A DNA stretch of 5,359 nucleotides from Escherichia phage phiX174 (AF299300.1); one strand, 5' to 3'; positions 1-5,359 are shown, counted from the first letter of the stretch. Numbers and translations: made by a program. Notes: generated by a model from the sequence alone, not told the origin.

Positions 1-51
1 GAGTTTTATCGCTTCCATGACGCAGAAGTTAACACTTTCGGATATTTCTGA
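1..51 (+). CDS. B: Internal scaffolding protein B, C-terminal 16 codons plus stop; continuation of the ORF that leaves the window at 5359
   Basis: Frame from 1 reads [16 protein letters not shown] then TGA at 49-51, in frame with ATG at 5048. B lies in a different frame inside A. Confidence 0.9.
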
Positions 52-136
52 TGAGTCGAAAAATTATCTTGATAAAGCAGGAATTACTACTGCTTGTTTA
101 CGAATTAAATCGAAGTGGACTGCTGGCGGAAAATGA
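1..136 (+). CDS. A: Replication initiation protein A (and A*), C-terminal 45 codons; continuation of the ORF that leaves the window at 5359 (circular genome wrap)
   Basis: Codon spanning 5358-5359+1 is CAG; frame from 2 reads [44 protein letters not shown] then TGA at 134-136. Contiguous with the open frame 3954..5359. Matches the A C-terminus as I recall it. Confidence 0.9.
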
Positions 137-221
137 GAAAATTCGACCTATCCTTGCGCAGCTCGAGAAGCTCTTACTTTGCGACCTTTCGCCATCAACT
201 AACGATTCTGTCAAAAACTGA
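51..221 (+). CDS. K: Protein K (small accessory protein, 56 aa)
   Basis: ATG at 51 shares one nt with the B stop (TGATG). Translates to [56 protein letters not shown], stop TGA 219-221. Absent from the ORF track only because it is under 60 aa. Overlaps A and C in the third frame. Confidence 0.88.
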
Positions 222-393
222 CGCGTTGGATGAGGAGAAGTGGCTTAATATGCTTGGCACGTTCGTCAAGGACTGGTTTAGATATGAGTCACATTTTGTT
301 CATGGTAGAGATTCTCTTGTTGACATTTTAAAAGAGCGTGGATTACTATCTGAGTCCGATGCTGTTCAACCACTAATAGGTAAGAAATCATGA
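133..393 (+). CDS. C: Protein C (DNA maturation / ssDNA synthesis switch, 86 aa)
   Basis: ORF track frame 115..393; canonical start is the ATG at 133 ([10 protein letters not shown]...), which overlaps the A stop as ATGA (133-136). Stop TGA 391-393 overlaps the D start. Confidence 0.9.
320..358 (+). promoter_or_regulatory. Candidate sigma70 promoter PD inside gene C, driving the D-E-J-F-G-H transcripts
   Basis: TTGACA at 320-325, 18-nt spacer, TACTAT at 344-349; predicted start near 356-358. Consistent with the phiX174 D promoter being located within C. Confidence 0.5.
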
Positions 394-848
394 GTCAAGT
401 TACTGAACAATCCGTACGTTTCCAGACCGCTTTGGCCTCTATTAAGCTCATTCAGGCTTCTGCCGTTTTGGATTTAACCGAAGATGATTTCGATTTTCTG
501 ACGAGTAACAAAGTTTGGATTGCTACTGACCGCTCTCGTGCTCGTCGCTGCGTTGAGGCTTGCGTTTATGGTACGCTGGACTTTGTGGGATACCCTCGCT
601 TTCCTGCTCCTGTTGAGTTTATTGCTGCCGTCATTGCTTATTATGTTCATCCCGTCAACATTCAAACGGCCTGTCTCATCATGGAAGGCGCTGAATTTAC
701 GGAAAACATTATTAATGGCGTCGAGCGTCCGGTTAAAGCCGCTGAATTGTTCGCGCTTACCTTGCGTGTACGCGCAGGAAACACTGACGTTCTTACTGAC
801 GCAGAAGAAAACGTGCGTCAAAAATTACGTGCAGAAGGAGTGATGTAA
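390..848 (+). CDS. D: External scaffolding protein D (152 aa)
   Basis: ORF track 390..848, 152 aa, [19 protein letters not shown]...AEGVM. ATG 390 overlaps the C stop (ATGA); stop TAA 846-848 overlaps the J start (TAATG). Confidence 0.95.
   Translation: MSQVTEQSVRFQTALASIKLIQASAVLDLTEDDFDFLTSNKVWIATDRSRARRCVEACVYGTLDFVGYPRFPAPVEFIAAVIAYYVHPVNIQTACLIMEGAEFTENIINGVERPVKAAELFALTLRVRAGNTDVLTDAEENVRQKLRAEGVM
568..843 (+). CDS. E: Lysis protein E (91 aa, MraY inhibitor), embedded in D in the +1 frame
   Basis: ORF track frame 520..843; canonical start is the ATG at 568 (MVRWTLWDTLAFLLLLSLLLPSLLIMFIPSTFKRPV...), preceded by GAGG at 556-559. Hydrophobic N-terminal transmembrane segment. Stop TGA 841-843. 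Confidence 0.9.
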   Translation: MVRWTLWDTLAFLLLLSLLLPSLLIMFIPSTFKRPVSSWKALNLRKTLLMASSVRLKPLNCSRLPCVYAQETLTFLLTQKKTCVKNYVQKE

Positions 849-964
849 TGTCTAAAGGTAAAAAACGTTCTGGCGCTCGCCCTGGTCGTCCGCAGCCGTT
901 GCGAGGTACTAAAGGCAAGCGTAAAGGCGCTCGTCTTTGGTATGTAGGTGGTCAACAATTTTAA
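848..964 (+). CDS. J: DNA-binding / packaging protein J (38 aa, highly basic)
   Basis: ATG 848 with GGAG at 837-840. Translates to MSKGKKRSGARPGRPQPLRGTKGKRKGARLWYVGGQQF, stop TAA 962-964. Under 60 aa, so absent from the ORF track. Confidence 0.9.
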   Translation: MSKGKKRSGARPGRPQPLRGTKGKRKGARLWYVGGQQF

Positions 965-973
965 GGATAAATT
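965..973 (+). other. J-F intercistronic spacer, only 9 nt (GGATAAATT); carries the F Shine-Dalgarno; the hairpin expected here is absent
   Basis: J stop at 962-964 and F ATG at 974 are 9 nt apart. AAGGA at 963-967 (overlapping the J stop codon) sits 6 nt before the F ATG. No inverted repeat is present. Confidence 0.8.
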
Positions 974-2257
974 ATGTCTAATATTCAAACTGGCGCCGAG
1001 CGTATGCCGCATGACCTTTCCCATCTTGGCTTCCTTGCTGGTCAGATTGGTCGTCTTATTACCATTTCAACTACTCCGGTTATCGCTGGCGACTCCTTCG
1101 AGATGGACGCCGTTGGCGCTCTCCGTCTTTCTCCATTGCGTCGTGGCCTTGCTATTGACTCTACTGTAGACATTTTTACTTTTTATGTCCCTCATCGTCA
1201 CGTTTATGGTGAACAGTGGATTAAGTTCATGAAGGATGGTGTTAATGCCACTCCTCTCCCGACTGTTAACACTACTGGTTATATTGACCATGCCGCTTTT
1301 CTTGGCACGATTAACCCTGATACCAATAAAATCCCTAAGCATTTGTTTCAGGGTTATTTGAATATCTATAACAACTATTTTAAAGCGCCGTGGATGCCTG
1401 ACCGTACCGAGGCTAACCCTAATGAGCTTAATCAAGATGATGCTCGTTATGGTTTCCGTTGCTGCCATCTCAAAAACATTTGGACTGCTCCGCTTCCTCC
1501 TGAGACTGAGCTTTCTCGCCAAATGACGACTTCTACCACATCTATTGACATTATGGGTCTGCAAGCTGCTTATGCTAATTTGCATACTGACCAAGAACGT
1601 GATTACTTCATGCAGCGTTACCGTGATGTTATTTCTTCATTTGGAGGTAAAACCTCTTATGACGCTGACAACCGTCCTTTACTTGTCATGCGCTCTAATC
1701 TCTGGGCATCTGGCTATGATGTTGATGGAACTGACCAAACGTCGTTAGGCCAGTTTTCTGGTCGTGTTCAACAGACCTATAAACATTCTGTGCCGCGTTT
1801 CTTTGTTCCTGAGCATGGCACTATGTTTACTCTTGCGCTTGTTCGTTTTCCGCCTACTGCGACTAAAGAGATTCAGTACCTTAACGCTAAAGGTGCTTTG
1901 ACTTATACCGATATTGCTGGCGACCCTGTTTTGTATGGCAACTTGCCGCCGCGTGAAATTTCTATGAAGGATGTTTTCCGTTCTGGTGATCCGTCTAAGA
2001 AGTTTAAGATTGCTGAGGGTCAGTGGTATCGTTATGCGCCTTCGTATGTTTCTCCTGCTTATCACCTTCTTGAAGGCTTCCCATTCATTCAGGAACCGCC
2101 TTCTGGTGATTTGCAAGAACGCGTACTTATTCGCCACCATGATTATGACCAGTGTTTCCAGTCCGTTCAGTTGTTGCAGTGGAATAGTCAGGTTAAATTT
2201 AATGTGACCGTTTATCGCAATCTGCCGACCACTCGCGATTCAATCATGACTTCGTGA
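974..2257 (+). CDS. F: Major capsid protein F (427 aa)
   Basis: ORF track 974..2257, 427 aa, MSNIQTGAERMPHDLSHLGFLAGQIGRL...RDSIMTS. Recognised as the microvirus major coat protein. Confidence 0.96.
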   Translation: MSNIQTGAERMPHDLSHLGFLAGQIGRLITISTTPVIAGDSFEMDAVGALRLSPLRRGLAIDSTVDIFTFYVPHRHVYGEQWIKFMKDGVNATPLPTVNTTGYIDHAAFLGTINPDTNKIPKHLFQGYLNIYNNYFKAPWMPDRTEANPNELNQDDARYGFRCCHLKNIWTAPLPPETELSRQMTTSTTSIDIMGLQAAYANLHTDQERDYFMQRYRDVISSFGGKTSYDADNRPLLVMRSNLWASGYDVDGTDQTSLGQFSGRVQQTYKHSVPRFFVPEHGTMFTLALVRFPPTATKEIQYLNAKGALTYTDIAGDPVLYGNLPPREISMKDVFRSGDPSKKFKIAEGQWYRYAPSYVSPAYHLLEGFPFIQEPPSGDLQERVLIRHHDYDQCFQSVQLLQWNSQVKFNVTVYRNLPTTRDSIMTS

Positions 2258-2289
2258 TAAAAGATTGAGTGTGAGGTTATAACGCCGAA

Positions 2290-2315
2290 GCGGTAAAAAT
2301 TTTAATTTTTGCCGC
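2290..2315 (+). terminator. F-G intergenic stem-loop, candidate weak terminator / RNA-stability element (TF region)
   Basis: Inverted repeat GCGGTAAAAATT (2290-2301) / AATTTTTGCCGC (2304-2315), about 11-12 bp stem with one G-U pair. No clean downstream U-tract, so termination would be inefficient. A second small hairpin GCGAAGCGC lies at 2331-2339. Confidence 0.3.
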
Positions 2316-2367
2316 TGAGGGGTTGACCAAGCGAAGCGCGGTAGGTTTTCTGCTTAGGAGTTTAATC

Positions 2368-2895
2368 ATGTTTCAGACTTTTATTTCTCGCCATAATTCA
2401 AACTTTTTTTCTGATAAGCTGGTTCTCACTTCTGTTACTCCAGCTTCTTCGGCACCTGTTTTACAGACACCTAAAGCTACATCGTCAACGTTATATTTTG
2501 ATAGTTTGACGGTTAATGCTGGTAATGGTGGTTTTCTTCATTGCATTCAGATGGATACATCTGTCAACGCCGCTAATCAGGTTGTTTCTGTTGGTGCTGA
2601 TATTGCTTTTGATGCCGACCCTAAATTTTTTGCCTGTTTGGTTCGCTTTGAGTCTTCTTCGGTTCCGACTACCCTCTCGACTGCCTATGATGTTTATCCT
2701 TTGAATGGTCGCCATGATGGTGGTTATTATACCGTCAAGGACTGTGTGACTATTGACGTCCTTCCCCGTACGCCGGGCAATAATGTTTATGTTGGTTTCA
2801 TGGTTTGGTCTAACTTTACCGCTACTAAATGCCGCGGATTGGTTTCGCTGAATCAGGTTATTAAAGAGATTATTTGTCTCCAGCCACTTAAGTGA
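2368..2895 (+). CDS. G: Major spike protein G (175 aa)
   Basis: ORF track frame 2323..2895; canonical start is the ATG at 2368 ([18 protein letters not shown]...), preceded by AGGAG at 2356-2360 with 7-nt spacing. Stop TGA 2893-2895 lies inside the H Shine-Dalgarno. Confidence 0.93.
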
Positions 2896-2903
2896 GGTGA
2901 TTT

Positions 2904-3890
2904 ATGTTTGGTGCTATTGCTGGCGGTATTGCTTCTGCTCTTGCTGGTGGCGTCATGTCTAAATTGTTTGGAGGCGGTCAAAAAGCCGCCTCCGGTGGCA
3001 TTCAAGGTGATGTGCTTGCTACCGATAGCAATACTGTAGGCATGGGTGATGCTGGTATTAAATCTGCCATTCAAGGCTCTAATGTTCCTAACTCTGATGA
3101 GTCCGCCCCTAGTTTTGTTTCTGGTGTTATGGCTAAAGCTGGTAAAGGACTTCTTGAAGGTACGTTGCAGGCTGGCACTTCTGCCGTTTCTGATAAGTTG
3201 CTTGATTTGGTTGGACTTGGTGGCAAGTCTGCCGCTGATAAAGGAAAGGATACTCGTGATTATCTTGCTGCTGCATTTCCTGAGCTTAATGCTTGGGAGC
3301 GTGCTGGTGCTGATGCTTCCTCTGCTGGTATGGTTGACGCCGGATTTGAGAATCAAAAAGAGCTTACTAAAATGCAACTGGACAATCAGAAAGAGATTGC
3401 CGAGATGCAAGATGAGACTCAAAAAGAGATTGCTGGCATTCAGTCGGCGACTTCACGCCAGAATACGAAAGACCAGGTATATGCACAAAATGAGATGCTT
3501 GCTTATCAACAGAAGGAGTCTACTGCTCGCGTTGCGTCTATTATGGAAAACACCAATCTTTCCAAGCAACAGCAGGTTTCCGAGATTATGCGCCAAATGC
3601 TTACTCAAGCTCAAACGGCTGGTCAGTATTTTACCAATGACCAAATCAAAGAAATGACTCGCAAGGTTAGTGCTGAGGTTGACTTAGTTCATCAGCAAAC
3701 GCAGAATCAGCGGTATGGCTCTTCTCATATTGGCGCTACTGCAAAGGATATTTCTAATGTCGTCACTGATGCTGCTTCTGGTGTGGTTGATATTTTTCAT
3801 GGTATTGATAAAGCTGTTGCCGATACTTGGAACAATTTCTGGAAAGACGGTAAAGCTGATGGTATTGGCTCTAATTTGTCTAGGAAATAA
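2904..3890 (+). CDS. H: Minor spike / DNA pilot protein H (328 aa)
   Basis: ORF track 2904..3890, 328 aa, [16 protein letters not shown]...[16 protein letters not shown] precedes the ATG. Gly/Ala-rich N-terminus and Gln-rich coiled-coil region typical of H. Confidence 0.95.
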
Positions 3891-3899
3891 CCGTCAGGA

Positions 3900-3935
3900 T
3901 TGACACCCTCCCAATTGTATGTTTTCATGCCTCCA
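3900..3935 (+). promoter_or_regulatory. Candidate sigma70 promoter PA in the H-A intergenic region
   Basis: TTGACA at 3900-3905, 17-nt spacer, TTTCAT at 3923-3928 (weak -10); predicted start around 3935, inside the downstream hairpin. Confidence 0.45.
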
Positions 3936-3953
3936 AATCTTGGAGGCTTTTTT
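3929..3953 (+). terminator. Intrinsic terminator after H (TH): perfect 8-bp stem, 3-nt loop, T6 tract
   Basis: GCCTCCAA-ATC-TTGGAGGC at 3929-3947 followed by TTTTTT at 3948-3953. The 3' arm GGAGG (3942-3946) doubles as the Shine-Dalgarno for gene A (ATG 3954). Confidence 0.75.
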
Positions 3954-5359
3954 ATGGTTCGTTCTTATTACCCTTCTGAATGTCACGCTGATTATTTTGA
4001 CTTTGAGCGTATCGAGGCTCTTAAACCTGCTATTGAGGCTTGTGGCATTTCTACTCTTTCTCAATCCCCAATGCTTGGCTTCCATAAGCAGATGGATAAC
4101 CGCATCAAGCTCTTGGAAGAGATTCTGTCTTTTCGTATGCAGGGCGTTGAGTTCGATAATGGTGATATGTATGTTGACGGCCATAAGGCTGCTTCTGACG
4201 TTCGTGATGAGTTTGTATCTGTTACTGAGAAGTTAATGGATGAATTGGCACAATGCTACAATGTGCTCCCCCAACTTGATATTAATAACACTATAGACCA
4301 CCGCCCCGAAGGGGACGAAAAATGGTTTTTAGAGAACGAGAAGACGGTTACGCAGTTTTGCCGCAAGCTGGCTGCTGAACGCCCTCTTAAGGATATTCGC
4401 GATGAGTATAATTACCCCAAAAAGAAAGGTATTAAGGATGAGTGTTCAAGATTGCTGGAGGCCTCCACTATGAAATCGCGTAGAGGCTTTACTATTCAGC
4501 GTTTGATGAATGCAATGCGACAGGCTCATGCTGATGGTTGGTTTATCGTTTTTGACACTCTCACGTTGGCTGACGACCGATTAGAGGCGTTTTATGATAA
4601 TCCCAATGCTTTGCGTGACTATTTTCGTGATATTGGTCGTATGGTTCTTGCTGCCGAGGGTCGCAAGGCTAATGATTCACACGCCGACTGCTATCAGTAT
4701 TTTTGTGTGCCTGAGTATGGTACAGCTAATGGCCGTCTTCATTTCCATGCGGTGCATTTTATGCGGACACTTCCTACGGGTAGCGTTGACCCTAATTTTG
4801 GTCGTCGGGTACGCAATCGCCGCCAGTTAAATAGCTTGCAAAATACGTGGCCTTATGGTTACAGTATGCCCATCGCAGTTCGCTACACGCAGGACGCTTT
4901 TTCACGTTCTGGTTGGTTGTGGCCTGTTGATGCTAAAGGTGAGCCGCTTAAAGCTACCAGTTATATGGCTGTTGGTTTCTATGTGGCTAAATACGTTAAC
5001 AAAAAGTCAGATATGGACCTTGCTGCTAAAGGTCTAGGAGCTAAAGAATGGAACAACTCACTAAAAACCAAGCTGTCGCTACTTCCCAAGAAGCTGTTCA
5101 GAATCAGAATGAGCCGCAACTTCGGGATGAAAATGCTCACAATGACAAATCTGTCCACGGAGTGCTTAATCCAACTTACCAAGCTGGGTTACGACGCGAC
5201 GCCGTTCAACCAGATATTGAAGCAGAACGCAAAAAGAGAGATGAGATTGAGGCTGGGAAAAGTTACTGTAGCCGACGTTTTGGCGGCGCAACCTGTGACG
5301 ACAAATCTGCTCAAATTTATGCGCGCTTCGATAAAAATGATTGGCGTATCCAACCTGCA
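3954..5359 (+). CDS. A: Replication initiation protein A (rolling-circle endonuclease), N-terminal 468 codons; ORF continues at position 1 and ends at 136 (513 aa in total)
   Basis: ATG 3954 (MVRSYYPSECHADYFDFERIEALK...). The frame is open to the window end, which is why the ORF track does not list it. Contains the HFHAVHF and YVAKYVNKKSD motifs typical of a rolling-circle initiator. Confidence 0.93.
   Translation, partial: MVRSYYPSECHADYFDFERIEALKPAIEACGISTLSQSPMLGFHKQMDNRIKLLEEILSFRMQGVEFDNGDMYVDGHKAASDVRDEFVSVTEKLMDELAQCYNVLPQLDINNTIDHRPEGDEKWFLENEKTVTQFCRKLAAERPLKDIRDEYNYPKKKGIKDECSRLLEASTMKSRRGFTIQRLMNAMRQAHADGWFIVFDTLTLADDRLEAFYDNPNALRDYFRDIGRMVLAAEGRKANDSHADCYQYFCVPEYGTANGRLHFHAVHFMRTLPTGSVDPNFGRRVRNRRQLNSLQNTWPYGYSMPIAVRYTQDAFSRSGWLWPVDAKGEPLKATSYMAVGFYVAKYVNKKSDMDLAAKGLGAKEWNNSLKTKLSLLPKKLFRIRMSRNFGMKMLTMTNLSTECLIQLTKLGYDATPFNQILKQNAKREMRLRLGKVTVADVLAAQPVTTNLLKFMRASIKMIGVSNL
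4272..4301 (+). other. Origin of viral-strand (rolling-circle) replication: conserved 30-nt A-protein recognition and nick sequence inside gene A
   Basis: CAACTTGATATTAATAACACTATAGACCAC at 4272-4301. The A-protein nick falls between G4278 and A4279 (CTTG/ATATT). Followed by the small palindrome CCCCGAAGGGG. Confidence 0.8.
4470..5359 (+). CDS. A*: Protein A* (in-frame internal initiation within A), N-terminal part; continues at 1..136
   Basis: ATG 4470 is in the A frame and preceded by GGAGG at 4457-4461 with 8-nt spacing. Translates to MKSRRGFTIQRLMNAMRQAHADGWF... Confidence 0.75.
   Translation, partial: MKSRRGFTIQRLMNAMRQAHADGWFIVFDTLTLADDRLEAFYDNPNALRDYFRDIGRMVLAAEGRKANDSHADCYQYFCVPEYGTANGRLHFHAVHFMRTLPTGSVDPNFGRRVRNRRQLNSLQNTWPYGYSMPIAVRYTQDAFSRSGWLWPVDAKGEPLKATSYMAVGFYVAKYVNKKSDMDLAAKGLGAKEWNNSLKTKLSLLPKKLFRIRMSRNFGMKMLTMTNLSTECLIQLTKLGYDATPFNQILKQNAKREMRLRLGKVTVADVLAAQPVTTNLLKFMRASIKMIGVSNL
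4836..4872 (+). promoter_or_regulatory. Candidate promoter PB inside gene A, upstream of B
   Basis: TTGCAA at 4836-4841 with possible -10 TTACAG/TACAGT at 4859-4865. Weak match; exact position uncertain. Confidence 0.3.
5048..5359 (+). CDS. B: Internal scaffolding protein B, N-terminal 104 codons; continues at 1..51 (120 aa in total)
   Basis: ATG 5048 preceded by AGGAG at 5036-5040 with 7-nt spacing. Translates to MEQLTKNQAVATSQEAVQNQNEPQLRDENAHNDKSVHGVLNPTYQAGLRRDAVQPDIEAERKKRDEIEAGKSYCSRRFGGATCDDKSAQIYARFDKNDWRIQPA. Frame open to the window end, different frame from A. Confidence 0.92.
   Translation, partial: MEQLTKNQAVATSQEAVQNQNEPQLRDENAHNDKSVHGVLNPTYQAGLRRDAVQPDIEAERKKRDEIEAGKSYCSRRFGGATCDDKSAQIYARFDKNDWRIQPA

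Follow-up and report, generated by a model that had tools for sequence, protein, structure and literature searches.

The stretch of DNA analysed here, which we call the window, is the record AF299300.1 (Escherichia phage phiX174) over its full 5359 nucleotides, with positions counted from the first letter. It carries genes A, A*, B, K, C, D, E, J, F, G and H, all 11 intact, at their reference lengths and in the canonical order on one strand, together with the origin of viral-strand synthesis. We consider it about 95% probable that the window is a complete phiX174 genome (Microviridae, Bullavirinae, Sinsheimervirus) that evolved in the laboratory from the ancestor AF176034 by way of an isolate named C, and that it is almost certainly the isolate 'CG' of the deposited host-switching series AF299300-AF299314. 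A 27-nucleotide deletion between genes J and F distinguishes it from the full-length phage. phiX174 was the first DNA genome ever sequenced, and the division of labour among its proteins is well established: replication goes by rolling circle, with protein A nicking the origin and driving synthesis; the procapsid, built of F, G and H, is scaffolded by B and D; packaging of the DNA depends on C and J, lysis on E, and delivery of the DNA into the next cell on H, the pilot protein. From sequence identity only, we infer a virion that holds single-stranded DNA in an icosahedral T=1 capsid, and rough enterobacteria as hosts.

The identity of the window was established by megablast against 50,697 phage records, of which 127 match at an identity of at least 99%. 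Positions 1-5386 of the reference (NC_001422/J02482) align to window 1-5359 at 99.7%, and the records AF299302 and AF299304 are each 99.9% identical to the window, AF299304 in one ungapped alignment over its positions 1-5359. The window aligns to phiX174 records over 100% of its length, from the first position to the last; both of its ends therefore fall at the usual coordinate origin, and no terminal redundancy is present. The only loss relative to a full phiX174 genome is internal and amounts to the 27 nucleotides of the deletion (5359 = 5386 - 27). A sequence-only reading, made without database searches, had taken the window for an entire circular microvirus genome, and for phiX174 itself rather than a distant relative or an undescribed system; the alignments, at 99.7-99.9% identity, bear this out. 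The same reading had expected near-identity over the full length. That expectation holds for the identity, but the J-F hairpin is missing and the reading made no mention of it.

Circularity is equally clear from the reading frames. The A/A* and B frames had been said to run off the end of the window and to resume at position 1, ending at 134-136 and 49-51, and translation from the end into the start reproduced all of these coordinates. No stop or frameshift was found at the 5359/1 junction when A, A* and B were translated across it. The proposal that the last five bases, CTGCA, and the first base, G, rebuild a PstI site is also correct: CTGCAG at 5355-5359/1 is the sole PstI site of the circle. 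The canonical overlaps are kept (B and K in A, E in D, and A* in frame in A), and each of the ten proteins scanned against Pfam (all but A*) matches its own Microviridae family far above the curated cut-offs, in agreement with the claim that gene order, overlaps and proteins are those of phiX174. The A protein is identical to that of AF176034. The origin 30-mer, CAACTTGATATTAATAACACTATAGACCAC, is matched exactly, and the rep_origin annotated at 4306 in NC_001422 corresponds to window 4279. A search of the window against Rfam returned no family at the gathering threshold.

The differences from the reference, where the sequence-only reading had located the interest, come to 15 substitutions and the one 27-nucleotide deletion when the window is set against the Sanger sequence in a multiple alignment. 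Five of the 15 (833A, 1650G, 2811T, 4518A and 4784T) are private markers of AF176034, which is 'isolate Anc', the laboratory ancestor of the Bull/Wichman experimental-evolution work (PMC2935103). By this comparison, the other ten substitutions and the deletion read as changes of experimental evolution. We compared the window with the 14 records AF299301 to AF299314, whose isolate names (CM, C, CGGlo, CGGhi, CMMlo, CMMhi, CMMhiC, CMMhiMhi, CGGhiC, CGGhiMhi, CGGloC, CGGloMhi, CMMloMhi and CMMloC) form a passage tree. The nearest records are AF299302 (isolate C) and AF299304 (isolate CGGhi). The window shares all four changes of isolate C (756C, 3055G, 3129T and 3438G), to which it adds the deletion and six more substitutions. 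CGGlo, CGGhi and the four isolates descended from them have every change seen in the window, and none is private to the window; this places it at the exact node between C and CGGlo/CGGhi (AF299303/AF299304). The tree thus presents the window as the direct ancestor of CGGlo and CGGhi, with its own descent running from AF176034 through C. An exact look-up of its H protein gave AF299304 as the sole match.

The records AF299300-AF299314 are the data of one unpublished study of the Wichman laboratory (PMC2935103), counted elsewhere as five experiments on Salmonella at 42 °C or above, five on E. coli at 37 °C and one on Salmonella at 37 °C (PMC3606162). The endings of the isolate names give the same counts (five 'Mhi', five 'C' and one 'Mlo'), which makes S. 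typhimurium the probable meaning of 'M', E. coli C that of 'C', and 42 °C or above and 37 °C those of 'hi' and 'lo'. The letter 'G' possibly denotes a third host, Shigella sonnei, which is our guess. Two considerations count against the name we give to the window: 'CG' was arrived at by elimination, as the one name that the passage tree leaves vacant, and from the position in that tree, and the meanings of the host letters are themselves our own interpretation.

Two other origins for the window have to be weighed, and we give almost no credence to either. It could be a wild phiX-like microvirus that naturally lacks the J-F hairpin. The natural relative S13 does have 2980T and 3120T, as the window does, and S13 and NC7 each contain a single GATC, but 120, 210 and 162 differences separate S13, NC7 and NC41 from the window, against 10 for the laboratory ancestor, and all three relatives keep the hairpin. 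The window also has all five private ancestor markers and occupies an internal node of a named laboratory series, and no sequence in IMG/VR, the GTDB genomes or the JGI metagenomes exactly matched the 29-nucleotide junction left by the deletion; a wild origin is therefore extremely improbable. The window could also be a contaminant from a commercial or Illumina PhiX control, in which case the gap would mark a GC-rich hairpin that dropped out during sequencing or assembly. Contamination by PhiX spike-in is very frequent, the records named Mycolicibacterium phage J1 and Protaetiibacter phage SSC1 contain phiX174, and GC-rich hairpins can give compressions in Sanger reads. The window, however, reads C at 2793 and so lacks the marker of commercial phiX DNA at that position. 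With 587G, 2731A and 3111G it is also without am3 and other commercial-DNA markers (bioRxiv 10.64898/2026.07.25.740675). The gap reaches 5-7 nucleotides past the stem in both directions, and 12 other records, from two laboratories, show it with identical limits; in one of these laboratories it was followed by polymerase chain reaction (PCR) over successive transfers (PMC5974221). As the ten other substitutions put the window in an evolved lineage, a control contaminant is scarcely credible.

Of the ten substitutions relative to AF176034, nine are missense (H has six; F, G and D have one apiece) and the tenth is silent in A (Table 1). Gene H makes up 18% of the genome but holds six of the ten (binomial P = 0.004), and its first 75 codons contain five of those six (P = 0.003). 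C2980T has been recorded in seven experiments and, given its place in the N-terminal transmembrane helix, an effect on DNA ejection has been suggested for it (PMC3606162). Both 2980T and 3120T are also the state of S13, and codon 64 of H was changed again in the CMMhi lines (at 3121), in line E1 and in CMMloC. In F, S340P is three codons away from F336, a residue listed among the sites of host recognition (PMC2935103), and the underlying T2018C was gained a second time, independently, in CMMloMhi. The base adjoining A4805G is altered in CGGlo, CGGhiC and CGGhiMhi, all of which have C4804T. Deep mutagenesis has located, across R271-R287 of A, clustered sites at which synonymous changes are deleterious, where a promoter had earlier been predicted (bioRxiv 10.64898/2026.07.25.740675).

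T2018C has a further consequence, for it creates the only GATC in the genome (reference 2015-2018). The count is zero in the ancestor, the Sanger reference and isolate C, where 15-20 would be expected from base composition, and the site is kept in all six descendants of the window. PMC5014478 describes phiX174 as wholly without GATC and ties this to evasion of methyl-directed mismatch repair. One GATC each is present in S13 and in the wild isolate NC7, and here the motif has been gained in a phage noted for avoiding it.

Table 1. Features of the window and its ten substitutions relative to AF176034 (substitutions are named in reference numbering; aa, amino acids; a slash in a sequence marks the nick)
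Feature	Position in window	Strand	Evidence or remark
Whole phiX174 circle, viral strand, opened at its single PstI site	1..5359	+	full-length alignment
Gene A, replication initiator, HUH nickase, 513 aa, ATG 3954 to TGA 134-136	3954..5359 then 1-136	+	PF05840 Phage_GPA 5e-62; in frame across the junction
A*, 341 aa, in the gene A frame, ATG 4470 to the TGA of gene A (134-136)	from 4470	+	junction translation
Gene B, internal scaffolding protein, 120 aa, ATG 5048 to TGA 49-51	5048..5359 then 1-51	+	PF02304 Phage_B 3e-50; junction translation
Gene K, 56 aa	51..221	+	PF12283
Gene C, 86 aa	133..393	+	PF12025
Promoter PD, -35/-10 match TTGACA-18-TACTAT, inside gene C, unchanged	320-349	+	promoter-like site
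Gene D, external scaffold, 152 aa, with F123L (T756C)	390..848	+	PF02925
Gene E, lysis, overlaps D	568-843	+	PF04517
Gene J, DNA-binding protein, 38 aa, stop TAA 962-964	848..964	+	PF04726
Scar of the 27-nucleotide deletion	964..965	+	alignments
Gene F, major capsid protein, 427 aa, with S340P (T2018C)	974..2257	+	PF02305 Phage_F 3.5e-170
GATC (Dam/MutH) site, sole one in the genome	1988..1991		made by T2018C
Gene G, major spike protein, 175 aa, with P104S (C2704T)	2368..2895	+	PF02306
Gene H, DNA pilot protein, 328 aa, six substitutions	2904..3890	+	PF04687 Microvir_H 2e-213
TH terminator hairpin and T-run, H-A intergenic, unchanged	3929..3953	+	terminator scan
Origin of viral-strand synthesis, 30-mer CAACTTG/ATATTAATAACACTATAGACCAC, intact	4272..4301	+	exact match
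T756C, D F123L; silent in E			
T2018C, F S340P	1991		
C2704T, G P104S	2677		
C2980T, H A17V (A16V in mature numbering)	2953		
A3055G, H N42S	3028		
C3120T, H P64S	3093		
G3129T, H A67S	3102		
C3154T, H A75V	3127		
A3438G, H N170D	3411		
A4805G, silent in A/A* (T275)	4778..4778	+	alignment

The deletion removes reference positions 965-991 or, equivalently, 964-990, with the sequence TTGCAGGGGCTTCGGCCCCTTACTTGA. The spacer between J and F in the ancestor reads TAA-TTGCA-GGGGC-TTCG-GCCCC-TTACTTGA-GGATAAATT-ATG. After the deletion, the TAA of J abuts GGATAAATTATG, the ribosome-binding site of gene F, and only 9 nucleotides, in place of 36, separate the J stop from the F ATG. The hairpin GGGGC-UUCG-GCCCC, which folds at -11.8 kcal/mol in the ancestor, is gone, and no structure is left in its place. 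This hairpin is the rho-independent terminator TJ. A simple terminator scan missed TJ even in the ancestor, because its T-tract has only 4 T in 8, and folding was used in place of the scan. The deletion also takes out ACTTG/A, a copy of the origin nick site that we refer to as the pseudo-origin.

The deletion is recurrent. In an alignment with 23 genomes it is base-identical in the window and its six descendants, and again in CMMloC and CMMhiC, whose parents CMMlo and CMMhi are without it. The identical deletion is also present in lines E2, E3 and E4 ('beta2-4', HM775309-11) from an independent laboratory, where it was PCR-tracked to transfers 27, 29 and 30 (PMC5974221; Kula et al. 2018, Sci Rep 8:8350). 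Across the two laboratories the deletion may thus have originated as many as six times; the seven passages on host 'M' did not yield it. Independence within one laboratory has two points against it: repeat origins there could in principle reflect cross-contamination or recombination between chemostats, and CMMhiC also gained 2980T and 3932G, both of which are present in the CG clade. A literature text search for phiX174 965-991 or a 27-nucleotide deletion gave no match, with Bull et al. 1997, Wichman et al. 2000/2005 and Hayashi et al. 1983 outside the searched text.

The deletion has been reported to go together with H A16V, the product of C2980T (PMC5974221). This pairing holds in the CG clade, CMMhiC and E2-E4, but CMMloC has the deletion with 2980C, and 2980T occurs without the deletion in E1, in S13 and in at least 15 full-length records (5386 or 5388 nucleotides). 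The pairing is therefore not absolute. We regard it as an association at most, plausibly arising because 2980T is a frequent early adaptive change.

Why would such a deletion be favoured? The benefit could come from loss of the pseudo-origin, a cleavage site for A/A*, from relieved termination ahead of F-G-H, or from both. One site outside the origin that A/A* cleaves includes positions 986 and 987, and each of four 50-day chemostats gained A986G or C987T (PMC3606162). CMMhiMhi carries T988C, within the same ACTTGA hexamer. These changes have opposite effects on the T-tract, which C987T lengthens and T988C shortens, and the deletion removes the terminator altogether. Loss of ACTTGA is the sole effect common to the changes at 986, 987 and 988 and the deletion, and we lean slightly, from these sequence changes, towards removal of an off-target A/A* nick site as the possible benefit, with loss of the terminator close behind and J-F coupling a distant third.

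Selection mainly through the loss of TJ, with more read-through into F, G and H or altered mRNA stability, remains a tentative explanation to which we would give rather less than even odds. An annotated rho-independent terminator has, after all, lost its hairpin in the window, and adaptive regulatory mutations that retune capsid-gene transcript levels are known in the phiX174 system (PMC3003669). RNA sequencing (RNA-seq) indicates that TJ, TF and TG each stop only 20-40% of transcription (bioRxiv 10.1101/2020.03.05.979765), and a block of that size implies up to about 1.25-1.7-fold more downstream transcript once TJ is removed. The J-F region has also been linked to mRNA stability, going by the title of Hayashi et al. 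1983 as cited in PMC3606162. TJ is weak, however, and its fitted efficiency, 0.34 from quantitative PCR data, is about 0 from RNA-seq data (PMC11527146). Most single-nucleotide changes in terminators are tolerated, 14.6% being detrimental (bioRxiv 10.64898/2026.07.25.740675), and C987T, the commonest point change in the region (PMC3606162), should strengthen termination by lengthening the T-tract, which is the opposite of what the deletion does.

J and F are both needed at 60 copies per virion. A J stop only 9 nucleotides from the F start, in place of 36, might couple translation of the two genes, or the F ribosome-binding site might be strengthened where TAA abuts GGA to read UAAGGA. The mean unpaired probability of the initiation region is predicted to rise from 0.46 to 0.59, but this gain in accessibility falls upstream of the Shine-Dalgarno (SD) sequence and not at the SD or the AUG. 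The predicted energy of the SD:anti-SD duplex hardly moves (-6.0 kcal/mol in the ancestor and -5.9 kcal/mol in the window), and on this unchanged value we reject a stronger ribosome-binding site through UAAGGA in place of UGAGGA. We consider a benefit through coupling or initiation improbable.

The manner in which the deletion forms is a separate question. Replication slippage between flanking repeats is unsupported: no direct repeats of at least 6 nucleotides were found flanking the deletion, microhomology at the breakpoints is 1 nucleotide as judged by eye, and the 3-nucleotide TTG...TTG repeat would give a 23-nucleotide deletion that was seen in none of the 23 genomes compared. On the viral strand of the ancestor, ACTTGA occurs twice only, at the origin (4301-4306) and in the J-F spacer (986-991). 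The origin nick made by protein A falls between G4305 and A4306; the equivalent bond in the spacer, between G990 and A991, is the right-hand breakpoint of the deletion. Because the motif is the sole copy outside the origin on that strand, the nick coincides with the right breakpoint, microhomology is only 1 nucleotide and the TTG repeat is unused, it is tempting to speculate that the phage's own HUH nickase, A/A*, makes the deletion by cutting at ACTTG/A in the spacer and rejoining upstream, and that the product is then favoured for having lost the site of self-cleavage. If so, the phage would edit out its own off-target nick site. We hold this combined scenario, of formation and selection together, to be an outside chance. 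ACTTGA is no commoner than chance (3 occurrences against 3.5 expected, counting both strands), and the coincidence with the breakpoint was noticed after the fact; both points count against the nick site as the source of the benefit.

Other length changes have accumulated within the series. CGGlo lost 20 nucleotides (reference 2288-2307) and CMMhi lost 15 (2293-2307), independently, just past the F stop. These losses lie at the 5' edge of the F-G intergenic region, which contains TF and the PriA/complementary-strand origin hairpin, and the window is intact there. All isolates of the CM clade have an in-frame 3-nucleotide deletion in gene H (reference 3007-3009), and CMMhiMhi has a 1-nucleotide insertion after reference 3961, in the T-run between H and A. 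Outside the series, complete phiX174 sequences are contained in MZ417522.1 (Mycolicibacterium phage J1, 24,953 bp), MT947439.1 (Protaetiibacter phage SSC1) and CP004084.1 ('Enterobacteriaceae bacterium bta3-1'), and most likely represent sequencing-control contamination of public records.

The window is an already known and deposited laboratory-evolved phiX174 genome and not a new system. Its practical value is one of triage, in that it can be dropped from lists of candidate new systems. The evolved variant, the deletion and most of the substitutions are already in GenBank, and related lines have been discussed (PMC2935103, PMC3606162 and PMC5974221). Beyond this, there is narrow but real interest in a hairpin that S13, NC7 and NC41 have all retained and that laboratory culture has repeatedly removed with identical ends.

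Among known genomes, CGGhi (AF299304) is a close counterpart. It is like the window in its length of 5359 nucleotides, its deletion and its H protein, is 99.9% identical, and differs by seven further substitutions, at 324, 1727, 2591, 3932, 4110, 4168 and 4861. Isolate C (AF299302) has the ancestor markers and the four substitutions in common with the window, but is without the deletion and without the changes at 2018, 2704, 2980, 3120, 3154 and 4805. The lines E2-E4 share the deletion, C2980T and the 5359-nucleotide length, yet they have a codon-deoptimised engineered background, differ from the window at 28-30 sites and have none of its other evolved changes. NC_001422/J02482 and AF176034, at 99.7% identity, agree with the window in gene order, overlaps, origin, promoters and the PstI coordinate origin. 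The window departs from the Sanger sequence by 15 substitutions and from AF176034 by 10, and from both by the 27-nucleotide J-F deletion and the new GATC.

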